64,000 bases of DNA from an uncultured delta proteobacterium (GTDB lineage Bacteria; Desulfobacterota; Binatia; DP-6). Where the stretch lies: NCBI GenBank assembly GCA_963811605.1, contig CAWESA010000010.1, positions 6,500-70,499 on the forward strand, read 5' to 3'. Within the stretch, counting starts at the first letter, position 1, and each line of letters begins with the position of its first letter. The notes under the pieces are model-generated. The model searched no databases and was not told the DNA's origin. It saw only the letters and a program-made list of their open reading frames with translations. Below are positions 19,307-32,744 of the stretch, in pieces. The position numbers and the translations under genes are program-made.

Positions 19307-20706
19307 CTAGATGTTCAGGCTGCGCTTCAGGACGCCGAGGGCGGCTTCCCGCACCGCCTCGGGCAGCGTCGGGTGGGCGTGCACCGTGCGCGCGATGTCC
19401 TCGCTGCTGGCGCCGTACTCCATGGCGAGGACCGACTCGGCGATCAGGTCGGACGCGCGCGGGCCGAGGATGTGGACGCCGAGGACCCGGTCGGTCCTGG
19501 CGTCTGCGATCATCTTGACGGCGCCCTCGGTCTCGCCGAGGCACCTGGCGCGCGCGTTGGCCATGAAGGGGAAGGTGCCGATGTTGACGGCGAGGCCGCG
19601 CTCCTTCGCCTGCTCCTCGGTGATGCCCACGCTCGCCAGCTCGGGATGGGTGTAGACGACGTTCGGCACCAGGTCCCAGTCGACGTGCACGGGATGGCCG
19701 GCCATGCCCTCGACGGCGGCGACGGCGTCGTCCTCGGCCTTGTGGGCGAGCATCGGCCCGGCGATCACGTCGCCGACGGCGAAGATGCCCGGCACGCTGG
19801 TCTCGAGACGCTCGTTCGACGACGATGCGCCCGCGCTCGTCGTACGCGACGCCCACCTCGCGCGCGCCGAGGCCCGTCGCTGAACGCCCGGCGCCCGACC
19901 GCCACCAGCACGACGTCGGCGTCGACCACGGGCGGCTCGCCCGGGCCGGCGAGGGTCACGCGGACGCCCGATTCCGTGCGCTCCGCCGACCTGGCCTGCG
20001 TCGAGAGCCGGAACCGCATGCCCTGCTTGTCGAGCGCGCGCTGCAGCTGCCTGGCCATCGCGCCGTCGGCCCACGGCACGATGCGGTCGAGGAACTCGAC
20101 CACCAGCACCTCGGAGCCGAGCCGCCGCCACACCGAGCCCAGCTCGAGCCCCACCGCGCCGGCGCCGATGACGAGCAGGCGCTCCGGCACCCGCGACAAG
20201 GACAGCGCCTCGGTCGAGCACACGATGCGCTCGCCGTCGAAGGGCAGCCCCGGCAGCGGCGTCGGCTCGCTCCCGGTGCAGATGAGCACGCGCGCGGTCT
20301 CGAGCGCGGTCTCGCCCTCGGCGCCCGCCACCGCCACGCGATCGGCGGCGGCAATCCGTCCCGTGCCCGTGAAGCGCGCGATCTTGTGCTTCCTGAACAG
20401 ACCGGCCACGCCGTTGGTGAGCCCGTTCACGACCTTGTCCTTGCGCGCCATCATGGCGGGCAGGTCGAGCGCGACGTCGCCGACGCGCACCCCGTGCACG
20501 GCGAGGCCGTCGGTGGCGAGGTGGAAGTGCTCGCTCGAATCGAGCAGCGCCTTCGACGGGATGCAGCCCACGTTGAGGCACGTGCCGCCGAGCGGGACGT
20601 CCTTCTCCACCACGGCGACGCGCATGCCGAGCTGGGCGGCGCGGATGGCGCCCGTGTAGCCGGCCGGCCCGCCGCCGATCACGACCAGGTCGAAGCGGTC
20701 GGCCAT
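19307..20706 (-). pseudogene. lpdA: Dihydrolipoyl dehydrogenase (E3 component) interrupted by two +1 frameshifts (sequencing error or pseudogene)
   Basis: N-terminus [17 protein letters not shown]...GGTCLNVGCIPSK (FAD/redox-disulfide) in one frame. Then ...VAVGRRAFSDG | LGAREVGVAYDERGRIVV | DERLETSVPGIFAVGDVI... continues across two further frames within ~75 nt (extra G near 19880, extra A near 19830). The C-terminal interface domain is intact to the stop at 19307. The ATG overlaps the sucB stop (ATGA). Confidence 0.85.
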
Positions 20707-22016
20707 CAGACGTCGAGGAGGAGGCGGCCCGGGTCCTCCAGGCGCTCCTTCACGCGCACCAGGAACGTCACCGCCTGCTCGCCGTCGACCAGGCGGTGAT
20801 CGTACGACAGCGCGAGGTACATCATGGGCCGGATCACGATCTGGTCGTTCACCACGACGGGCCGCTTCTCGATCTTGTGCATGCCGAGGATGCCGCTCTG
20901 GGGCGGGTTCAGGATGGGCGTGGAGAGGAGCGAGCCGTAGACGCCGCCGTTCGAGATGGTGAAGGTGCCGCCCTGGAGGTCGTCGACGCCGAGCTTGCCG
21001 TCGCGCGCCAGACCGGCGAGGCGGGCGATCTCGCGCTCCAGATCGGCGAACGACATGGCGTCGGCGTTGCGCACCACCGGCACGACCAGGCCGCGGTCGG
21101 TGCCGACGGCGACGCCGAGGTTGACGTGGTGGTGGTAGACGACGTCGTCGCCGTCGATCTGCGCGTTGACGCCCGGCACCTCGGCCAGCGCCGCGATGCA
21201 GGCGCGCCCGAAGAACGACATGAAGCCGAGGCCGATGCCGTGCTTCTTCTGGAAGGCGTCCTTGTACTGGGCGCGCATCGCCATCATCGCGCTGCAGTCG
21301 AGCTCGTTGAAGGTGGTGAGGATGGCGGCCGTGTGCTGGGCCGCGACCAGGCGCTCCGCGATGCGCTTGCGGATGCGCGTCATGGCGACGCGCTCCTCGC
21401 CCGCGCCCGCCGGACGCGCCGCGGCCGGCGCGGGCGCCGCCGGTCTGGGCGCGGGGGCGGCGGCCGGCGGCGCGACCGCCTGGGGCCGGGCGGCGGCGGC
21501 CTCGGCCATCGCCTCGCGGCGCTCGAGGTGCGTCAGCACGTCGCCCTTGGTGATCCGGCCGCCCTTGCCCGAGGCCGGGATGACGCCGGCATCGAGGCCG
21601 TGCTCGTCGATCAGGTTGCGCACGGCGGGGCTCAGCGGCCCGACCGGCCGGCTCGGCGCCGGGGCCGACGCCGGAGGCGGCGGCTCGACCTCGGGCGTGG
21701 TCTCGGCGGGCTTCGGCGCCGCGGCGGGGGGCGGCGCGGCCTGCTCGGGCGCCTTCCGGGCGGCCGGAGCGGCGGCGCGCGTGTCGCCGTCCTCGATGCG
21801 GGCGACGACGTCGCCCGGCACCACCGTCGCGCCTTCCGGCTTCACGATGCGGAGCACGCCGGCGTACTCCGCCGGCAGCTCGGTGGCGGCCTTGTCGCTC
21901 TCCAGCTCGAGGATCACGTCGTCGGGGGCGACGGTGTCGCCGTCGGCCTTGGCCCAGCGGGAGATGGTGGCCTCGGTGACGGATTCGCCGAGACTCGGGA
22001 TGCGCACCTCGAACAT
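20706..22016 (-). CDS. sucB: Dihydrolipoyllysine-residue succinyltransferase (E2 of 2-oxoglutarate dehydrogenase)
   Basis: Lipoyl domain ([22 protein letters not shown]), Ala/Pro-rich linkers, E3-binding domain, and catalytic domain with DHRLVDG. Confidence 0.9.
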
Positions 22017-22028
22017 GCTCGTCCCCCG

Positions 22029-24830
<2,802 letters not shown>

Positions 24831-24898: not shown

Positions 24899-25210
24899 TC
24901 AGCCGTCTGACTGCTTGACGCGGCGGCGATGATAGACCCCCGCGGCGGCCAGGCAGGCCTCGAGCGCGGCCTCGGCCGTGTCGCCCTCGCCGAGCGGCCG
25001 GAAGGCCGCCGGGTCGGCGAGACTGGTGGCGACGGCGAAGAACGGCTGCGTCGAGGCACCCTTGAGCGAGCGGAAGACCTTCACCTCGTAGGCCACCTGC
25101 TCGCGGCCCTCGAAGTCGAAGGCGACCTGGCACTGGGCCACCACGATGGCGGCCTCGACCATGTGGTCGGTGAAGGTGATGCGGGTCCAGTCGAGCTCGC
25201 CGGTCATCAC
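24899..25210 (-). CDS. Hypothetical small protein (~103 aa) upstream of sucA
   Basis: Non-Arg-biased composition, unlike surrounding spurious ORFs. GTG-ATG start at 25210/25207. No recognised family. Confidence 0.4.
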   Translation of the reverse strand: MMTGELDWTRITFTDHMVEAAIVVAQCQVAFDFEGREQVAYEVKVFRSLKGASTQPFFAVATSLADPAAFRPLGEGDTAEAALEACLAAAGVYHRRRVKQSDG

Positions 25211-25425: not shown

Positions 25426-28400
25426 TTAGTCCAGGGGGGCTCCTCGACCGATCCAATCCTCGACCACACGGAATTTTGCACCACCCACTTCGAAGCCCTG
25501 CACCGTCCCGCCGCCGTGCGGCACGCGCCCCGAAGGCTTGAGGAGCAACAAGCTCGTGTCGGGTCGCGTCGGCGTCACCCGGATGCGCGCGGGTCCGTAC
25601 GCCTGTTCCGGCGTGCCGCCGAGGTCGAACCCGTTCGGCGGGGTCGGTCCGGTGTGGCAGCCGCGGCACACCTCGAGCTGGGGCGAGACATCGGCTCGAA
25701 AAGCCGATCTCACAGTTCCGGTCTGCCGCGCGAGTACTGACACGAACGTTCGATCCGTGCCGGCGGTACCGAGCGACGGATCGCGCACGGCGAATTCGAC
25801 GGTGTGGAAACCCAGGGTCGCAGGTGCCAGTCGCGCGACAGCGTGGTCCGCGTCCGACAGCATCGGGGGCGCGCCGGCGGGGAAGGACACGATCGTCGCG
25901 GAGTGCTGCGCATCGTCGGGGAGGTTGAGGCTGAAGGAGGTATCCAGCACCGCAATGTTCCCGACGTCGACTTCACGCGGCGCGCGGACGCGCGCGATGA
26001 CGCGCCCGGGCCTCAGCTCACGTCCGCATGTGAGCAGCTCGCCGCGGGACAGGAACGTCTCGCCGGCGGACGGTTCGAGCAGATACGCGTGCGTTCTATC
26101 CGTCAGCGACAGAACTCCGGCATACGATCGACTCCGATCCAGCACTCCCCACGCGCGCCCGCCGTCGAGGCTCCGAACCGGATTTGCGGTCGACGACGAG
26201 GCGTCGGCATAGAGTACTCCGGGAGTGAACGGATCGAATGCCAGCCGCGTGAACGGCGTGAGCAGGCGCCACGTCCCGCCGCGGTCGTCGCTCCGCCACG
26301 CGGCCCGCCCCTCGGCCGGATCGTTCGAGAGGCCTTGGACGATCAGCACCTTCTCGTCGTGCGGATCTACGATGATGTTGTCGAGCAGCGCCGCCGGCTG
26401 CGTCGGGAGTGGTGTCCAGTTTGCACAGTCGGTCGTCTCTTGCGGGACGCCGTCGACGATGCCGAAGACCGTCGGAGGCTGTCCGGGTACGACGGAAGCT
26501 GGCGTGACGGCCCGCACGTTCTGGGCACAGAACGTCCAGGTGCCCTCCAGGTGGTAGAGGTCATGCTGCCCTGCGGGATCGCTGTTCTCGCGCAGCACCA
26601 GGTAGACCTGGGCCGGGGGCAGGCCGTCGGCGCTGGGGCCTATCGCGAGTTGCTCGACGAACCGTGGGGCCGGGAGGCCTTCCTCGAAGTCCGTCGTCGA
26701 CCAGTTGTTGTTCGAGCTTCGAAGGACACGGTCCGGTGTCACCAGCGCATACTTCACACGCGTGTCGAGCGGATCGAATGCCAGGGCGAGCGGGACACCC
26801 GAGGTGGGAAACCGCGTCATCGGGTTGCCCCAGCTCGCGCTGCTGGCGCCTACCGTGATCTGCCGCGCCTGGAGCTGCCCGTCGACCAGTCCTGCGGCGA
26901 GGAGGTGGGCAGGATTCCCGGGTTCGGCGGCGGCCACGGACACCACCATGCCCTTCCCCGACGCACCGAGAGACTCCCACGTGAACTCTCCCGGAAGGAC
27001 ATCACCGATGGTGGAAGGTCCCGTGCTGGAGCTCGTCCAGAATCTCTCGAAGGTGCGTCGAGCGAGCGGCATCTGACCGTCCTCGCACACCAGCTGTCGG
27101 ACGCCATTCGAGAGGAGGCGGAACTGCTCGAGCGAGTTCAGGGGTAGCGCGGTCTGCGCATGGCATCCACGACAGCCGTGGCGGATGGCGTCGTAGAGCG
27201 ACGGATCTTGCAGCCACCCGTTTGGAACGAACGATGAATCGAACGTCGTCCTCGGTAGTCCCTGGCCGCCATACCATCCCTCGATCAGCTCTTTGATCGC
27301 GGCAGAAGGCTGGTAAAGGCGCTGATCCGCGTCGAGAACCGCACGATTCAGCTCCCTGAACTGCGACTCCTGCGCGGCACGGCTGAGGTCCGGTCGGGGG
27401 GAATAGTCGAACGAATCGAGGTCGAAGGGAATGAAGCGAGCGCCGAGATTGCCCCCGGAGGGTGCGTAGCCCCCGGCCGCACGCCCGCCGTGGCAGGGAG
27501 TGCATAGCTCGGGCTGGAACTTCACGCCGCGCCCGTCGAGATCTATGCAGTCGAGCCGCGCGCCGGCGACGCCGTAGGTGAAGAACTTGATGAAGGGCTG
27601 CGCACTCGGATCGTCATCCGGCGAAGACAGCTCCATGGCGACGGTAGCCAGCAACCCCTTCTTGAGCGGATCTAGAGCCGCATCCGCGCTGCAGTAGTTC
27701 TCCACGTAGAAGGCGATTCGATGATCGTCGTCACGGCGCATCGACATGCGCCGGCCAAATCCCAGATCGTTCGCATTGACGTAGATCGCCAATGCCTGTG
27801 GTGGCCCAAACCCGTTGACCGTCCTCCAACCGTCGAGCGTCGTGCGGAGGTGATAGGGGTCGACGACGTCGTAGTAGTCCCCGGCATCGGGCGCTGGCGG
27901 GAGATCGCGGAAGGCGAAGCTGAGGAAGGAGTGGGGATCGGGAGGCAGATCGTCCGGCGCGACGTGCCCGCAGAGCGACGGCATGGTCGTGGTGGTCGTC
28001 GAGGTCGTAGTGGTCGCGACCGTCGTGGTGGTGGTGGACGGCGCCGTCGACGTCGTGGAGGTCGTGGTGGGCACGACGGTGCTGGGCGACGGTGCCGTCG
28101 TCGTCGTGGTCGCCTTGATCGTGCTGGTCGACGGCGCGATCGTCGTCGTGGCGGGTACGATCGTAGTGGGCGACGCGTCCGTCGTCGTGGTGGGGCCGGC
28201 GATGGTCGTCTGAGTGGACACGCTGGTCGAGGTGGTGGGGCGGGACGTCGACGTACTCGTCGAGGTCGTGGCCGATGTCGGCGCGCTCGTCGTGGTCGTC
28301 GTCGGAGACACCTCGGACTGGAGAACGCAGCGACAGGCGACGCACGACGAGCCCGGAGGACAGGCCGCCAGACCGGGCTCCCCGCAGGTTTCGCCCGGGT

Positions 28401-28866
28401 CGGCGGTTCCGTTGCTGCACCCCGGCGCAGGTGCAGGGCACCGGCAGCCCGCATCGCATACGTCGCCTCCCGCACACTGTCGGCCTGGCGGATCGCACTC
28501 CTCGCCACGGACAGCCGTAACGATACCGTCCCCGCACCTCGAGTCGCACGCCATGCCCCCGTCGCTGCAGCAACTCTTGCAGTCCCCGGCGAATCTGCGG
28601 CACTGCGACTTGAGCGTCCGCAACACCCGCTGACGGCATGCCCTCCTCGCATCCGCGTTGCAGTCTCGAGATGCACGCTCCCTAGCCTGCGTGATGCACG
28701 CTCGGAGCGCGCTGCGGCAATTCCTGGCACACGGACCGGGCCTCGGCACCGCGGCGGCACGCGCCGCGATGCCGGCCAGCGCGACGGCCACCAAGCACGA
28801 GGCAATTCGTGACCCGCGTGAACTGGAGGTGGACAACCTTCGCTGCCCCGTGCGTGGCCGTGGCAT
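25426..28866 (-). CDS. Large secreted multidomain protein: signal peptide, myxo-type Cys-rich repeats, Thr/Ser-rich linker, three CxxCH (PSCyt-like heme-binding) motifs, BNR/Asp-box repeats
   Basis: Start proposed at ATG 28866 (MPRPRTGQRRL...CLVAVALAGIAARAAAV). N-terminal CGDGIVTAVRGEECDPPG repeat. A ~110-aa T/S/P linker. CTPCHGG, CRGCHAQ and CRGCHTG followed by ...SLLLLKPSGRVPHGGG, reminiscent of planctomycete cytochrome c domains. SDDRGGTW and SLDGGRAW Asp-boxes. Confidence 0.8.
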   Translation of the reverse strand: MPRPRTGQRRLSTSSSRGSRIASCLVAVALAGIAARAAAVPRPGPCARNCRSALRACITQARERASRDCNADARRACRQRVLRTLKSQCRRFAGDCKSCCSDGGMACDSRCGDGIVTAVRGEECDPPGRQCAGGDVCDAGCRCPAPAPGCSNGTADPGETCGEPGLAACPPGSSCVACRCVLQSEVSPTTTTTSAPTSATTSTSTSTSRPTTSTSVSTQTTIAGPTTTTDASPTTIVPATTTIAPSTSTIKATTTTTAPSPSTVVPTTTSTTSTAPSTTTTTVATTTTSTTTTTMPSLCGHVAPDDLPPDPHSFLSFAFRDLPPAPDAGDYYDVVDPYHLRTTLDGWRTVNGFGPPQALAIYVNANDLGFGRRMSMRRDDDHRIAFYVENYCSADAALDPLKKGLLATVAMELSSPDDDPSAQPFIKFFTYGVAGARLDCIDLDGRGVKFQPELCTPCHGGRAAGGYAPSGGNLGARFIPFDLDSFDYSPRPDLSRAAQESQFRELNRAVLDADQRLYQPSAAIKELIEGWYGGQGLPRTTFDSSFVPNGWLQDPSLYDAIRHGCRGCHAQTALPLNSLEQFRLLSNGVRQLVCEDGQMPLARRTFERFWTSSSTGPSTIGDVLPGEFTWESLGASGKGMVVSVAAAEPGNPAHLLAAGLVDGQLQARQITVGASSASWGNPMTRFPTSGVPLALAFDPLDTRVKYALVTPDRVLRSSNNNWSTTDFEEGLPAPRFVEQLAIGPSADGLPPAQVYLVLRENSDPAGQHDLYHLEGTWTFCAQNVRAVTPASVVPGQPPTVFGIVDGVPQETTDCANWTPLPTQPAALLDNIIVDPHDEKVLIVQGLSNDPAEGRAAWRSDDRGGTWRLLTPFTRLAFDPFTPGVLYADASSSTANPVRSLDGGRAWGVLDRSRSYAGVLSLTDRTHAYLLEPSAGETFLSRGELLTCGRELRPGRVIARVRAPREVDVGNIAVLDTSFSLNLPDDAQHSATIVSFPAGAPPMLSDADHAVARLAPATLGFHTVEFAVRDPSLGTAGTDRTFVSVLARQTGTVRSAFRADVSPQLEVCRGCHTGPTPPNGFDLGGTPEQAYGPARIRVTPTRPDTSLLLLKPSGRVPHGGGTVQGFEVGGAKFRVVEDWIGRGAPLD
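27960..28330. repeat. Low-complexity GTCGTG/GTGGTC-rich tract encoding the Thr/Ser-rich linker of the large secreted protein
   Basis: Visible as a run of gtcgtggtggtcgtcga... units. Slippage-prone. Confidence 0.6.
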
Positions 28867-29001
28867 GAGCGAGCGACCGTAACGCAGCTCGCCACGGATC
28901 GTCAAGGAAAATATGGATAGTCAATAAGATTCTCTTGAGCAGCGTATTGATTCCATGTGTTCACACTTGCTATTCACGTGCAAGCGCATTAGGACAGGCC
29001 C

Positions 29002-29799
29002 GTGACGAGGAACCGCAGTGTGCTCGAGGACACACGAGCCAGCTCCGAACGACGCCGCTGGGTGTCGGCGCGACGGTTGGCGGGGGTCGTTGCGCTGTTC
29101 ATGGCCGGCACGCTGGTCGGGCGCCCACCGGTCTTCGCATGCGAGCTGGACGGCGTCGTCGGCCCGGGAGAAGAGTGCGACGACGGAAACGACAACGACG
29201 TCGACTGCTGCCGCAACGACTGCACGGCCAACGTCGGCGCCCCGTGCGGGCCGGGCATCACGTGTGGTGCCGATCGATGCAACGCCGCCGGCACGTGCGA
29301 GCGAGTGGCGGCGAATCGCGGCGTGGTCTGCGGGCCGGCAAGCAGTACGTGCGACCCGCCACCTCGATGCGACGGCTCGGGCACGGGGTGCCCCGCGGCA
29401 AAGACGGACAAGTCCCTCTGCGCCTGGAGCATCAAGCCAGCCGGCGACCCGCTGAGGGAGGGGATCTCCGCCCTGTGCAGCGTGCCAGACAATCTGGGTA
29501 CGTCGTCCGGCGGGACTCGCCGTTCCGACTGCGTCTGTGTGGGCAAAGAGCAGGGCGGGGGCAAGCGGCTCACGGCACGCGTGGCTCCGCGGCTCGTGGA
29601 CAAGACGGAAAGCCCCGATGGACCGCGGAAGGAGAAGAGGTTCTTCCTTCGTCTCAACGCGCGAGGCCGGCGGCTCTTGAAGCAGGGCGGAACCCTCACC
29701 GTCGAAGTGAACGCGGTCATTCACCACGGGGATACGGAGAAGGGGTCGGAGCGCAGCCCCCTCAAGAAGTTGATCATGCTGCTGCTACGGAGCAGGTGA
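29002..29799 (+). CDS. Secreted cysteine-rich protein with myxobacterial Cys-rich repeat (TIGR02232-like)
   Basis: Signal peptide (ARRLAGVVALFMAGTLVGRPPVFA), then CELDGVVGPGEECDDGNDNDVDCCRNDC ... CDGSGTGCP. Lies in the lower-GC islet. Confidence 0.7.
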   Translation: MTRNRSVLEDTRASSERRRWVSARRLAGVVALFMAGTLVGRPPVFACELDGVVGPGEECDDGNDNDVDCCRNDCTANVGAPCGPGITCGADRCNAAGTCERVAANRGVVCGPASSTCDPPPRCDGSGTGCPAAKTDKSLCAWSIKPAGDPLREGISALCSVPDNLGTSSGGTRRSDCVCVGKEQGGGKRLTARVAPRLVDKTESPDGPRKEKRFFLRLNARGRRLLKQGGTLTVEVNAVIHHGDTEKGSERSPLKKLIMLLLRSR

Positions 29800-29943
29800 A
29801 CCGCAACTGCCGGCACTTCAGACGGTCTTTCGGCCAGAACGCTCTCCAGGCGTTCACCTTTCCGAGGGAGCGGCACGGTCGTCCGCTGCACACACCTCGA
29901 GATCGGGGGAGACGACGAACATGCACACCGGCTCGAGGGAAAA

Positions 29944-31176
29944 TTGCATCGGCACTTCCGTCCGCACGCTCCCACGACCGCCGGAGCGCGCGTGGAGCGC
30001 CGTGCTCAACAGCTGTTCCAACGAGTGGGCGAAATGCCGGTCGTGATCGGGCGATCCGTAGGCGAAGGCGGTACCAACAACCCCGCCGATGTCACACAGA
30101 TCGACGGCTTGCTGGCGAAGGTCGGAGTGCTGAGAGCGATCCGGGCCACCGCCGCGACACGACACGTAGCGATAAAGCGATTCCAGCAGATATGGGGTCT
30201 CGGGTCTGGCGGCAAGTTCGACGGCCGGATCGACCCCAACGCGACCACTCTCAGGAGGCTCAACGAGACCGCGAGGGGACTGACCCTCAACGCGATCGGT
30301 CTCGGCACGATCAAACGCGGCGGCTATCTGATCTCACACACCCCCAAGGCACCGCCCGCCCCGTACAGGCTTCTGCTGGGGCCATCGGTCCAGGACTGCA
30401 TCGACGTGACCGGTCGTCCGAGCGCGGATCTCCTCGACGTCCCCAAGCTCGTCGAGCTGCTCAAGCTGATCCAGAAGCTCGGCAAGTGGGGACAGATGCT
30501 GAGCGTAAAATTGCTCGTCGTACTTGACGGGCAGCCCGTGTCGGAATCGCTTCCCCAAGTATTGAACTGCCCGGTACAGCCACATAACGGCAGGATGCTG
30601 CCGCTCGATTTAACCGGAAACGGGAGCAAGCTGACGTACCAGGGTGACCCGGACAGAAACGAATTCAGTGGTCGCCTTCTTCACAAGATCGAAGGTTTCG
30701 ACGGATACTTCTTCAAGTACGCCGGGAAGTTCGAGACCAGCGCGAGCCGGCGTGGCTTTGACTGCATCACTTACGTGGGAACCACATGCGGGGCCCCCGA
30801 TGACGCGATGACCGCGAGCCCGCAACTCGCGGATGCCATGAACGCCAAGCGGTGTTCGATCGAACGGCTCGTCTCGCAAGATTCGCCCACCGGCCAGACG
30901 CCACCGACGGCCGCCCCGCGGACCAAGAAGGTCACGCTCGAGCTGGAGCAGACGGATCCGCAGAACGTCAAGGACTTCTTCGCAAGCAAGCCGACCGGTT
31001 ACTACCTCATGTGGAGCGGCGGGCACATCGTGATCGTGGCCGATGGCTCGGTGTACGAATTCGCCGCATCCAGAAAGGGGTACGTCGCAACGCCGGTGTC
31101 CTCGTGGCTCGAGCCTTACAGGACCAAGAGGCTCACCGTTCGCGAGCTCCCGTCAAAGCCGGCTTTGGCCACCTGA
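29944..31176 (+). CDS. Peptidoglycan-binding domain protein with C-terminal NlpC/P60-like cysteine peptidase motifs, no signal peptide
   Basis: PG_binding_1-like region (VTQIDGLLAKVGVLRA...AIKRFQQIWGLGSGGKFDGRIDPNATTLRRLNE). C-terminal FDCITYVG (NlpC/P60 DCSG-like Cys) and GYYLMWSGGHIVIVADGSVYEFAAS (His motif). TTG start at 29944; GTG 29989 or ATG 30034 are alternatives. GGGGGAG SD-like motif ~35 nt upstream of the TTG (too far to act as its RBS). Confidence 0.6.
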   Translation: MHRHFRPHAPTTAGARVERRAQQLFQRVGEMPVVIGRSVGEGGTNNPADVTQIDGLLAKVGVLRAIRATAATRHVAIKRFQQIWGLGSGGKFDGRIDPNATTLRRLNETARGLTLNAIGLGTIKRGGYLISHTPKAPPAPYRLLLGPSVQDCIDVTGRPSADLLDVPKLVELLKLIQKLGKWGQMLSVKLLVVLDGQPVSESLPQVLNCPVQPHNGRMLPLDLTGNGSKLTYQGDPDRNEFSGRLLHKIEGFDGYFFKYAGKFETSASRRGFDCITYVGTTCGAPDDAMTASPQLADAMNAKRCSIERLVSQDSPTGQTPPTAAPRTKKVTLELEQTDPQNVKDFFASKPTGYYLMWSGGHIVIVADGSVYEFAASRKGYVATPVSSWLEPYRTKRLTVRELPSKPALAT

Positions 31177-31352: not shown

Positions 31353-31452
31353 GAATATCACGGCACTTCCGTCGCTGTTTACCCTTGACCGCGACACTTG
31401 CTCGTGAGAATCGATGTGCCGCAACGAGACCACCCGCAGCCCGACGAGGTCC

Positions 31453-32039
31453 ATGATGCCAATGTACGCGTTGCAGTACGCAGTACTCGGCCTCATCTCT
31501 GCACGCGAGGCAGGGGTCCACGGCTACCGACTGAAGAACGAGTTCGAGGCCCTCTACGGCGACTTCTGGGCGCTCAACTACGGGCAGATGTACCGTACCC
31601 TCGACCGCCTCGAACGCGCAGGCTTGATCGAGGGCTTCGACGAGCTGCAGACGCGACGGCCCAATCGCAAGGTCTTCCGCATCACCAAGCAGGGCAGGAA
31701 GCGCCTCGACGCATGGCTCGTGCATCCACCGAGTCAGGAGCCGCGCCCGCTGCGCGACGAGCTTTCGCTGAAGCTGCTGTTCCTGGCGGAGGCGCGCCTC
31801 GATGAGATGCGCGCCATCATCAGCACGCAGCGCGCGCTCTACCTCCAGCACCTCAGCCGGCTCAACAAGCGCCGCGACACGGTCATGGACACCCGGGAGG
31901 GATTCGTCATGAAGCTGCTGTTGAGCCAGGCAGACATGCGGGTGCGCTCGGATCTCGCCTGGCTCGATCTGGTCGAGACGGAGGTGGCAAAGCGCTGCAC
32001 GGCGTCCGCGGCCGCACTCCCGCACTCCGGCAAGGAGCG

Positions 32040-32043
<4 letters not shown>
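31453..32043 (+). CDS. PadR family transcriptional regulator
   Basis: MYALQYAVLGLISAREAGVHGYRLKNEFE...WALNYGQMYRTLDRLERAGLIEG winged-helix signature. The listed ORF starts at 31414; ATG 31453 is the more likely start. Stop overlaps the next gene (ATGA). Confidence 0.85.

Positions 32044-32744
<701 letters not shown>

Follow-up and report, generated by a model that had tools for sequence, protein, structure and literature searches.

The 64,000-nucleotide stretch analysed here (the window) comes from contig CAWESA010000010.1 of an uncultured delta proteobacterium (GenBank assembly GCA_963811605.1) and carries, on its minus strand at 25426..28866, an open reading frame (ORF) of 1146 amino acids (aa) plus stop that begins with ATG (MPRPRTG...); an in-frame TTG at 28905 provides an alternative start that would extend the product to 1159 aa (25426..28905, minus strand). 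Homologues support the coding frame across 97% of the ORF (P0003, at 35% identity and E=2e-141). A first-pass annotation of the same DNA, which left the strand unstated, had listed a Cys-rich N-terminus, a Thr/Ser linker, three CxxCH motifs and two Asp-boxes in this 1146-aa ORF, and every one of these features is found on translation. The CxxCH motifs, the Asp-boxes, the Thr/Ser/Pro spacer and the Cys-rich N-terminus are all far above chance; within aa 299–1146, for example, three CxxCH motifs are observed against 0.003 expected, and two S.D.G..W motifs against 0.007 expected (20,000 residue shuffles). We consider it reasonably probable that the gene product is a modular c-type cytochrome, exported through Sec and bearing three haems, in which a two-haem core is combined with exchangeable binding modules. 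The domain order would lead from a signal peptide through a disulfide-rich CG[DN]G module and a Thr/Ser/Pro spacer to the two-haem domain, and from there through a non-catalytic BNR-type propeller and an Ig/PKD-like sandwich to a FoxE-like monohaem domain. All features of the protein are given below as minus-strand positions of the window.

The two-haem domain spans aa 306–612 (~307 aa; 27031..27951) and is defined by a profile family together with an AlphaFold2 (AF2) model. It contains the first two CxxCH motifs, namely CTPCH at aa 455–459 (27490..27504) for haem 1 and CRGCH at aa 565–569 (27160..27174) for haem 2. Neither Pfam nor NCBIfam matches the domain, either within the whole protein or as isolated segments at E<=10, and when 82 members of the family were scanned with both collections the two-haem region was never covered. 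Searched against 1.84 billion protein cluster representatives (50% identity), a profile built from nine sequences of the domain (A2) retrieves 2,471 clusters at E<=1e-3, of which 1,338 reach E<=1e-30. The matched proteins range from 350 to 3,900 aa and carry the domain at any place in the chain. The best match, P0087 (3,907 aa), combines fn3, many PKD, P_proprotein and Y_Y_Y domains with two matched stretches of the two-haem domain. A word-indexed search found 78 members, many of them without any Pfam domain, and some members bear the JGI label 'mono/diheme cytochrome c family protein'. Targeted literature searches found nothing on the domain.

Conservation within the domain, calculated over 161 non-redundant members with >85% coverage, is concentrated at the haem sites and at a set of polar residues. 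Cys455, Cys458 and His459 of the first motif, Cys565 and Cys568 of the second and Arg372 are 100% conserved, followed by His569, Met599, Pro600, Asp367, Asn507 and Tyr532 (99%) and by Asn390, Tyr331 and Tyr558 (98%). The motifs described as haem-type at first pass are genuine, and all three are strongly conserved in relatives, sites 1 and 2 at 99–100% in these 161 members and site 3 in about 100 C-terminal domains. A failure of CxxCH conservation among orthologues, the second outcome that the first-pass annotation had named as speaking against its proposal, is clearly not observed.

The AF2 model of the central domain, based on a 44-sequence alignment, is confident (predicted local distance difference test score, pLDDT, 85.5; predicted template modelling score, pTM, 0.87) and comprises two subdomains. 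In the N-subdomain, two helices and an antiparallel sheet of five strands precede CxxCH 1 and a long helix, whereas the C-subdomain is small, helical and class-I-like, with helices at model residues 256–312, and holds both CxxCH 2 and Met599. In P0007, P0008, P0014 and 8 of 38 further relatives, a P_proprotein domain (PF01483, ~200 aa) is nested exactly between the two subdomains, which supports the boundary. Structure prediction of this region, proposed as a check by the first-pass annotation, yields two well-modelled subdomains with no fold match in the PDB, where Foldseek returns nothing at E<=0.001. Matches to lipocalins (best E=0.2, TM <0.2) were dismissed as noise.

The surroundings of the two haem sites bear local resemblances to characterised cytochromes that stay below significance in PDB sequence searches with profiles of the whole domain and of the N-subdomain: DLDGRGxKxxPxxCxxCHGG around CxxCH 1 is reminiscent of the start of cytochrome c6 (N-terminus, E=0.05), and CRxCHxQR at CxxCH 2 of the second haem site in MauG (E=0.011). 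For haem 2, the layout of a class I cytochrome c fits, with CxxCH placed early in a small helical domain and a conserved Met downstream; this likeness is one of fold and motif, not of hidden Markov model (HMM) membership, and no Pfam cytochrome model reaches its threshold on segments of the query. Met599-Pro600 (27067..27072), 30 residues past CxxCH 2, would provide the distal ligand, and we infer His/Met ligation of haem 2. For haem 1, the sixth position may be taken by Met374, by Met411 or by a Tyr, or it may be vacant. Met374 is 91% and Met411 88% conserved, six of the 161 members being without both, and the segment that leads from CxxCH 1 to the second subdomain is without a conserved Met or His in this set, position 479 being Leu or Ile. 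As far as sequence and model can tell, aa 306–612 make up a true c-type cytochrome domain with two haems, assembled in part from class-I-like elements and with neither a curated family nor a solved homologue.

The third CxxCH motif (CRGCH, aa 1067–1071; 25654..25668) belongs to a monohaem cytochrome c domain of FoxE/PSCyt1-like type at the C-terminus (aa 1054–1145; 25432..25707). A profile of this domain (A8, 30 sequences) matches, within the PDB, the dihaem Fe(II)-oxidising cytochrome FoxE (5mab, E=4.9e-13; PMC10654088), both repeats of which are aligned, and hydrazine synthase alpha (5c2v, E=3.4e-7). Of 221 retrieved proteins with the central domain, fragments among them, 123 also carry this C-terminal domain. 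CxxCH 3 is 98–100% conserved across 100 domains, with Cys1067, Cys1070, His1071 and Trp1138 at ~100%, Ser1105 at 98% and His1117 at 91%. His1117 (25516..25518) belongs to a PHGGG motif within aa 1105–1120, where the motif SLLLLKPSGRVPHGGG is located, and the family consensus 'sHgGG' aligns on 'RMPxG' of FoxE, so that His1117 takes the place of a FoxE methionine. Since the methionines of FoxE are the distal haem ligands (PMC10654088), His1117 is the putative distal ligand of a bis-His haem 3, and the coordination of this haem is probably His/His. A recent duplication relating the C-terminal domain to the C-subdomain of the core was considered and rejected, as a profile-profile alignment matched CxxCH only.

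The same homology could be taken to mean that the protein is a FoxE-like Fe(II)/Mn(II) oxidoreductase, exchanging electrons with soluble or mineral metal at the cell surface, and an exported architecture such as this one would fit. We nevertheless regard this as improbable. The similarity to FoxE is limited to the ~90-aa C-terminal domain, within which the FoxE Met ligand is replaced by His, and many members of the two-haem family are without a FoxE-like C-terminal domain altogether. A His in place of a Met ligand would lower the haem potential. Moreover, the partner modules of the family are carbohydrate- or protein-binding rather than mineral-associated, and no foxY/foxZ-like genes were found around the target or in the neighbourhoods of six relatives.

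The first-pass annotation had instead likened the CxxCH motifs to planctomycete-type PSCyt domains. In its full form, this would make the protein a PSCyt1/PSCyt2 (DUF1549/DUF1553-like) protein with all three motifs in PSCyt-type domains, which is very unlikely. The C-terminal domain does show the PSCyt1-like layout of CxxCH followed by S-L-L and W-I-x-x-G-A, hydrazine synthase alpha, its homologue in the PDB, is a planctomycete protein, and PSCyt1 (PF07635) matches 4 of 30 isolated C-terminal domains of relatives (best E=7e-4). However, the generic Cytochrome_CBB3 model covers more of these domains (11 of the 30; Cytochrom_C matches 5 and PccH 4), and the Met-Pro-Pro region of PSCyt1 has a His here. 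The query itself has no match to PSCyt1, PSCyt2 (PF07583) or PSD1 (PF07587), whether scanned whole at E<=1 or as segments at E<=10, and is without the PSCyt2/PSD1 architecture; nor are these models among the top families in the 82 relatives. CxxCH 1 and 2 belong to a different, uncurated domain with a beta-sheet subdomain, to which the PSCyt comparison does not apply. For the C-terminal domain, we consider 'PSCyt-like' a fair description of motif layout, not of family membership, and 'FoxE-like' the better one.

Between the two cytochrome units, aa ~628–944 (26035..26985) form a BNR/Asp-box-type beta-propeller of about 6–7 blades, as indicated by profile, AF2 and Foldseek. The AF2 model of aa 612–1146 (pLDDT 78, pTM 0.69) places ~26 strands first, then a beta-sandwich and then a helical domain. 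Two canonical Asp-boxes, SDDRGGTW (aa 859–866; 26269..26292) and SLDGGRAW (aa 899–906; 26149..26172), are in register with boxes of P0003 and P0004, in which four are canonical, whereas the other aligned positions of the query are degenerate. The propeller proposed at first pass stands on profile homology and fold, though not on a Pfam model at cutoff. A profile of the region (A4, four sequences) retrieves proteins with BNR (PF02012), Sortilin-Vps10 (PF15902) and PSII_BNR (PF14870) domains at E down to 2e-29, and Foldseek of the aa 612–1146 model finds the Micromonospora sialidase 2bzd (E=8e-10), an archaeal YVTN propeller with PKD, and the Vps10p domains of SorLA and sortilin; by contrast, the BNR and BNR_6 models reach only 10.7–14.5 bits on the query against a gathering cutoff of 27, and BNR_6 at the first Asp-box is likewise sub-threshold (E=0.038–0.12). 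In Pfam and NCBIfam, therefore, neither PSCyt nor BNR models formally hit the query, an outcome that the first-pass annotation had itself named as telling against its proposal. The propeller is followed by an Ig/PKD-like beta-sandwich (aa ~965–1047; 25726..25974), defined by AF2 strands and aligned with the K319L-like PKD domains of P0006–P0008.

With the Micromonospora sialidase structures 2bzd and 1w8o as the best Foldseek matches of the propeller (E~1e-9), and with P0003 weakly matching F510_1955, a glycosylhydrolase family (E=1.4e-10; 41 bits, where the cutoff is 175), the protein might be supposed to be a sialidase or other glycoside hydrolase in which the propeller is catalytic and the cytochrome domains are accessory. 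We give this little credence. The sialidase FRIP motif is absent, neither [FY]RIP nor RIP occurring anywhere in the protein, and the Asp-boxes are degenerate at four of roughly six positions. By sequence, the propeller is closest to the non-enzymatic propellers of Ycf48/PSII_BNR and sortilin-Vps10 type, and relatives exchange it for NHL, PKD or fn3 modules while the haem domain stays constant. We read the propeller as one of binding type rather than as a sialidase.

The protein begins with a probable Sec signal peptide (aa 1–40; 28747..28866) that was read from the sequence as an Arg-rich n-region, the hydrophobic segment IASCLVAVALAGIAARAAA and then AAA/VP, suggesting that the protein is probably exported through Sec. 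The Cys-rich module that comes next (aa 46–183; 28318..28731) aligns with P0003 and P0004; 23 cysteines lie between aa 24 and 180, and aa 107–183 consist of two copies of a ~35-aa repeat, CG[DN]G..GE.C..PG..C..C.C. Related copies, 40–51% identical to those of the query, occur at least 10 times in tandem in P0010, whose DUF4215 match is sub-threshold only and lies elsewhere in that protein. The first-pass annotation had named these myxobacterial Cys-rich repeats. Neither TIGR02232 nor DUF4215 matches the full-length protein or, at E<=10, its first 299 aa. The two CG[DN]G copies are a related repeat, and we take the likeness to be one of motif only and not of HMM membership. The Thr/Ser linker noted at the same time is real: a Thr/Ser/Pro-rich spacer occupies aa 186–297 (27976..28311), with 54 Thr, 20 Ser and 12 Pro among its 112 residues (77% T+S+P), at the place upstream of the central piece where relatives hold a PASTA domain. 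It is scarcely credible that the CxxCH motifs are disulfide- or metal-binding cysteines of a purely structural or adhesive Cys-rich protein, since, although cysteines abound at the N-terminus and adhesin-like domains make up most of the partners, only 13 Cys lie beyond the N-terminal module, six of them in the three CxxCH motifs, the CxxCH His and Met599-Pro600 are 99–100% conserved, the local sequence resembles the haem sites of cytochrome c6, MauG and FoxE, and the Cytochrome_CBB3 and Cytochrom_C HMMs match relatives.

Comparison across relatives distinguishes the constant from the exchangeable parts of the protein. At full length, the query matches 13 proteins of 5.8 billion. P0001, a fragment with 97% identity, and P0002, N-terminally incomplete and 78% identical, are near-orthologues, while P0003 and P0004 (35–36% identity) have the whole architecture in common with the query. 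The complete architecture, including the fusion of propeller and cytochrome, occurs in only four proteins of that collection, which bears out the first-pass impression of an unusual combination; fusion of the two-haem domain with a BNR propeller is very rare. P0005–P0009 match the query over aa ~305–612 only, with or without the C-terminal ~95 residues, and differ in what lies between the conserved pieces. The BNR-like propeller of the query, P0003 and P0004 has as its counterpart an NHL/SGL propeller in P0005, PKD domains only in P0006–P0008 and fn3 in P0009. Across the 82 scanned relatives, nearly all partner domains are of binding or Ig type (PKD, CBM6/35, Big_9, cadherin, PASTA, fn3, P_proprotein, PD40, FG-GAP and NHL), and some members carry CBM6, CBM35 or Sde0182_C. 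Across relatives the two-haem domain is the only constant part, and we regard it as the unchanging core of a large uncurated family and the surrounding modules as an exchangeable binding scaffold. In one relative, a tyrosinase domain (PF00264) stands beside the two-haem domain, the sole clear second redox enzyme domain among the 82. Strong matches of eight relatives to the NCBIfam entry 'myxosortase-dependent M36 metallopeptidase' fall on N-terminal Ig-like repeats and not on the haem domain, and this identity was rejected. The GTDB representatives with the two-haem domain are all metagenome-assembled genomes; six are Myxococcales or 'Deltaproteobacteria' and two Gammaproteobacteria, and others are Planctomycetota, Thermoanaerobaculia and one unclassified proteobacterium. 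Some proteins of the family are named from Methyloglobulus and Casimicrobiaceae.

Downstream of the gene, and likewise on the minus strand, lie a 103-aa ORF (24899–25210) that has no Pfam match and a G+C content at third codon positions (GC3) of 0.94, and then sucA-sucB (20706–24830), an ordinary housekeeping operon for 2-oxoglutarate dehydrogenase E1 (933 aa) and E2 (436 aa). Upstream, the genes are divergent (plus strand) and encode a Cys-rich 265-aa protein, a 410-aa protein, and then PadR and an ABC ATPase. The 265-aa protein (29002–29799) is secreted, has a weak Disintegrin match (E=7.7e-4) and is 38% identical over 86 aa to a 921-aa Cys-rich (Dicty_CTDC) neighbour of P0003 in locus L015, so that Cys-rich secreted proteins adjoin the gene in two distant genomes. 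The 410-aa ORF (29944–31176) has neither a Pfam match nor an exact match in the protein collection. PadR and ABC-transporter genes lie ~2.5 kb from the target (31414–32744, plus strand), and a PadR and MacB/FtsX permease pair lies ~6 kb from the relative P0041 (L016, 14311–15443); this recurrence is probably a coincidence.

The composition of this neighbourhood is uneven. GC3 is 0.80 in the target, 0.83 in the 265-aa ORF and 0.78 in the 410-aa ORF, compared with 0.96–0.97 in sucA, sucB and hslU (~14 kb away), while PadR and the ABC ATPase, just outside the low-GC3 block, have values of 0.88–0.93. Overall GC falls to 0.63–0.68 across the three-gene block (25426–31176). This distinct composition might mark a horizontally acquired island, or else weak codon bias in genes of low expression. 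The window contains no second copy of either haem domain, and an Rfam scan of the window gave no matches. In two related contigs of betaproteobacterial type (Casimicrobiaceae-like), L018 (6050–12228) and L019 (6082–12121), the genes around the family member encode a beta-barrel-like protein of ~300 aa, a FecR-like protein of 243 aa and a CHASE2-guanylate/adenylate cyclase. Because the two source genomes are near relatives (67–79% identity), the cyclase and FecR-like neighbours were rejected as independent evidence.

What can be said of haem loading, axial ligands, location, direction of electron flow and any catalysis is what we infer from these features. After export, the cytochrome c maturation system of the host would load haem onto the three CxxCH sites, and the protein would reside in the periplasm, at the cell surface or outside the cell, where the propeller and the Cys-rich module may anchor it on a polymer, a surface or a partner. 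The two-haem domain would be the working part, which the other modules position on its target, and a short electron chain could be formed among the low-potential bis-His haem 3, the His/Met haem 2 and haem 1. In the model, haem 1 would sit against the beta-sheet amid the invariant polar residues Arg372, Asp367, Asn390, Asn507 and Tyr331/332. These invariant polar surroundings, together with the lack of a strictly conserved sixth ligand, would make haem 1 the best candidate for a reactive site at which substrate or small-molecule chemistry could take place. The protein is most likely a surface or extracellular redox protein tethered to its substrate.

Several observations weigh against this account of a tethered three-haem cytochrome. 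Cytochrome c maturation genes, a search for which was suggested at first pass, are not found in the window, and neither are the haem-lyase WWD motif or other CxxCH proteins, so that maturation genes are not adjacent. No operon partner is consistently shared across the neighbourhoods of six relatives, which leaves no substrate clue from context. The C-terminal domain is missing from about 44% of the retrieved relatives, some of them fragments, and the three-haem chain is thus not universal. Finally, with Met374 and/or Met411 present in most members, haem 1 may be a plain His/Met electron carrier.

A bolder proposal, which we consider unlikely, is that the two-haem domain represents a new haem-enzyme fold, in which a beta-sheet-backed haem 1, open or weakly ligated and ringed by invariant Arg, Asp, Asn and Tyr residues, is fed by the His/Met haem and carries out peroxide-, oxygen- or NO-dependent chemistry at extracellular polymers or surfaces to which the variable binding modules would bring it. 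If true, this fold would define a class of secreted bacterial oxidoreductase that is widespread but has so far escaped recognition. A curated model of the two-haem domain would improve the annotation of thousands of 'hypothetical' exported proteins, and the domain, at ~310 aa, is small enough for direct expression and characterisation.

Secreted modular c-type cytochromes are already known as a kind; what is new here is the core domain family and its apparently new arrangement of subdomains. The individual parts of the protein can nevertheless be related to known systems. The propellers of Ycf48 (PSII_BNR) and of sortilin-Vps10 are homologous to aa 628–944 by profile and fold, although the query keeps only two canonical Asp-boxes. 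FoxE of Rhodobacter ferrooxidans (PDB 5MAB) shares with the C-terminal domain the elements F..D..P....C..CH, S-L-L and W-I..GA. It differs in having two repeats instead of one and a Met in RMPxG where His1117 (PHGGG) is found here, and it is without the two-haem central domain, the propeller and the Cys-rich module; its foxYZ context is not found here. Hydrazine synthase alpha (5C2V) likewise unites a beta-propeller and haem domains in one chain, and its C-terminal haem domain is homologous to that of the query, but its domains are in another order, the central domain has no match in it, and the window holds no anammox context.

The core itself can be compared with the dihaem cytochrome c peroxidase/MauG family (PF03150), in which, as in the proposed core, one haem transfers electrons and the other lies in a polar pocket. 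The fold of MauG and its peroxidase relatives is all-alpha, in contrast to the beta-sheet-backed haem 1 of the query, and the family gives neither a Pfam nor a Foldseek match, its PDB sequence matches (E=0.011–0.75) covering 33 residues only. Among the CAZy modules, X183 is a plain monohaem class-I cytochrome and X132 is described with a single CxxCH (PMC8981238, PMC10916295), compared with two in the central domain; X132 is set apart here by its published description and not by sequence, and the two are not obviously the same domain. A precedent for the overall plan is set by the secreted modular cytochromes of polysaccharide degraders in which X183 and X132 occur, namely Cellvibrio Cbp2D (X132 at its C-terminus) and Teredinibacter TERTU_2913 and TERTU_3803. 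Their roles are at best partly known (PMC8981238, PMC10916295), and like the family of the query they join CxxCH domains to binding modules on flexible linkers. P0005 has the same PF08450 propeller as TERTU_3803 (PMC10916295). Secreted c-type cytochromes with binding modules such as these are emerging in extracellular redox chemistry, for example in metal cycling or in supplying electrons for polysaccharide oxidation.

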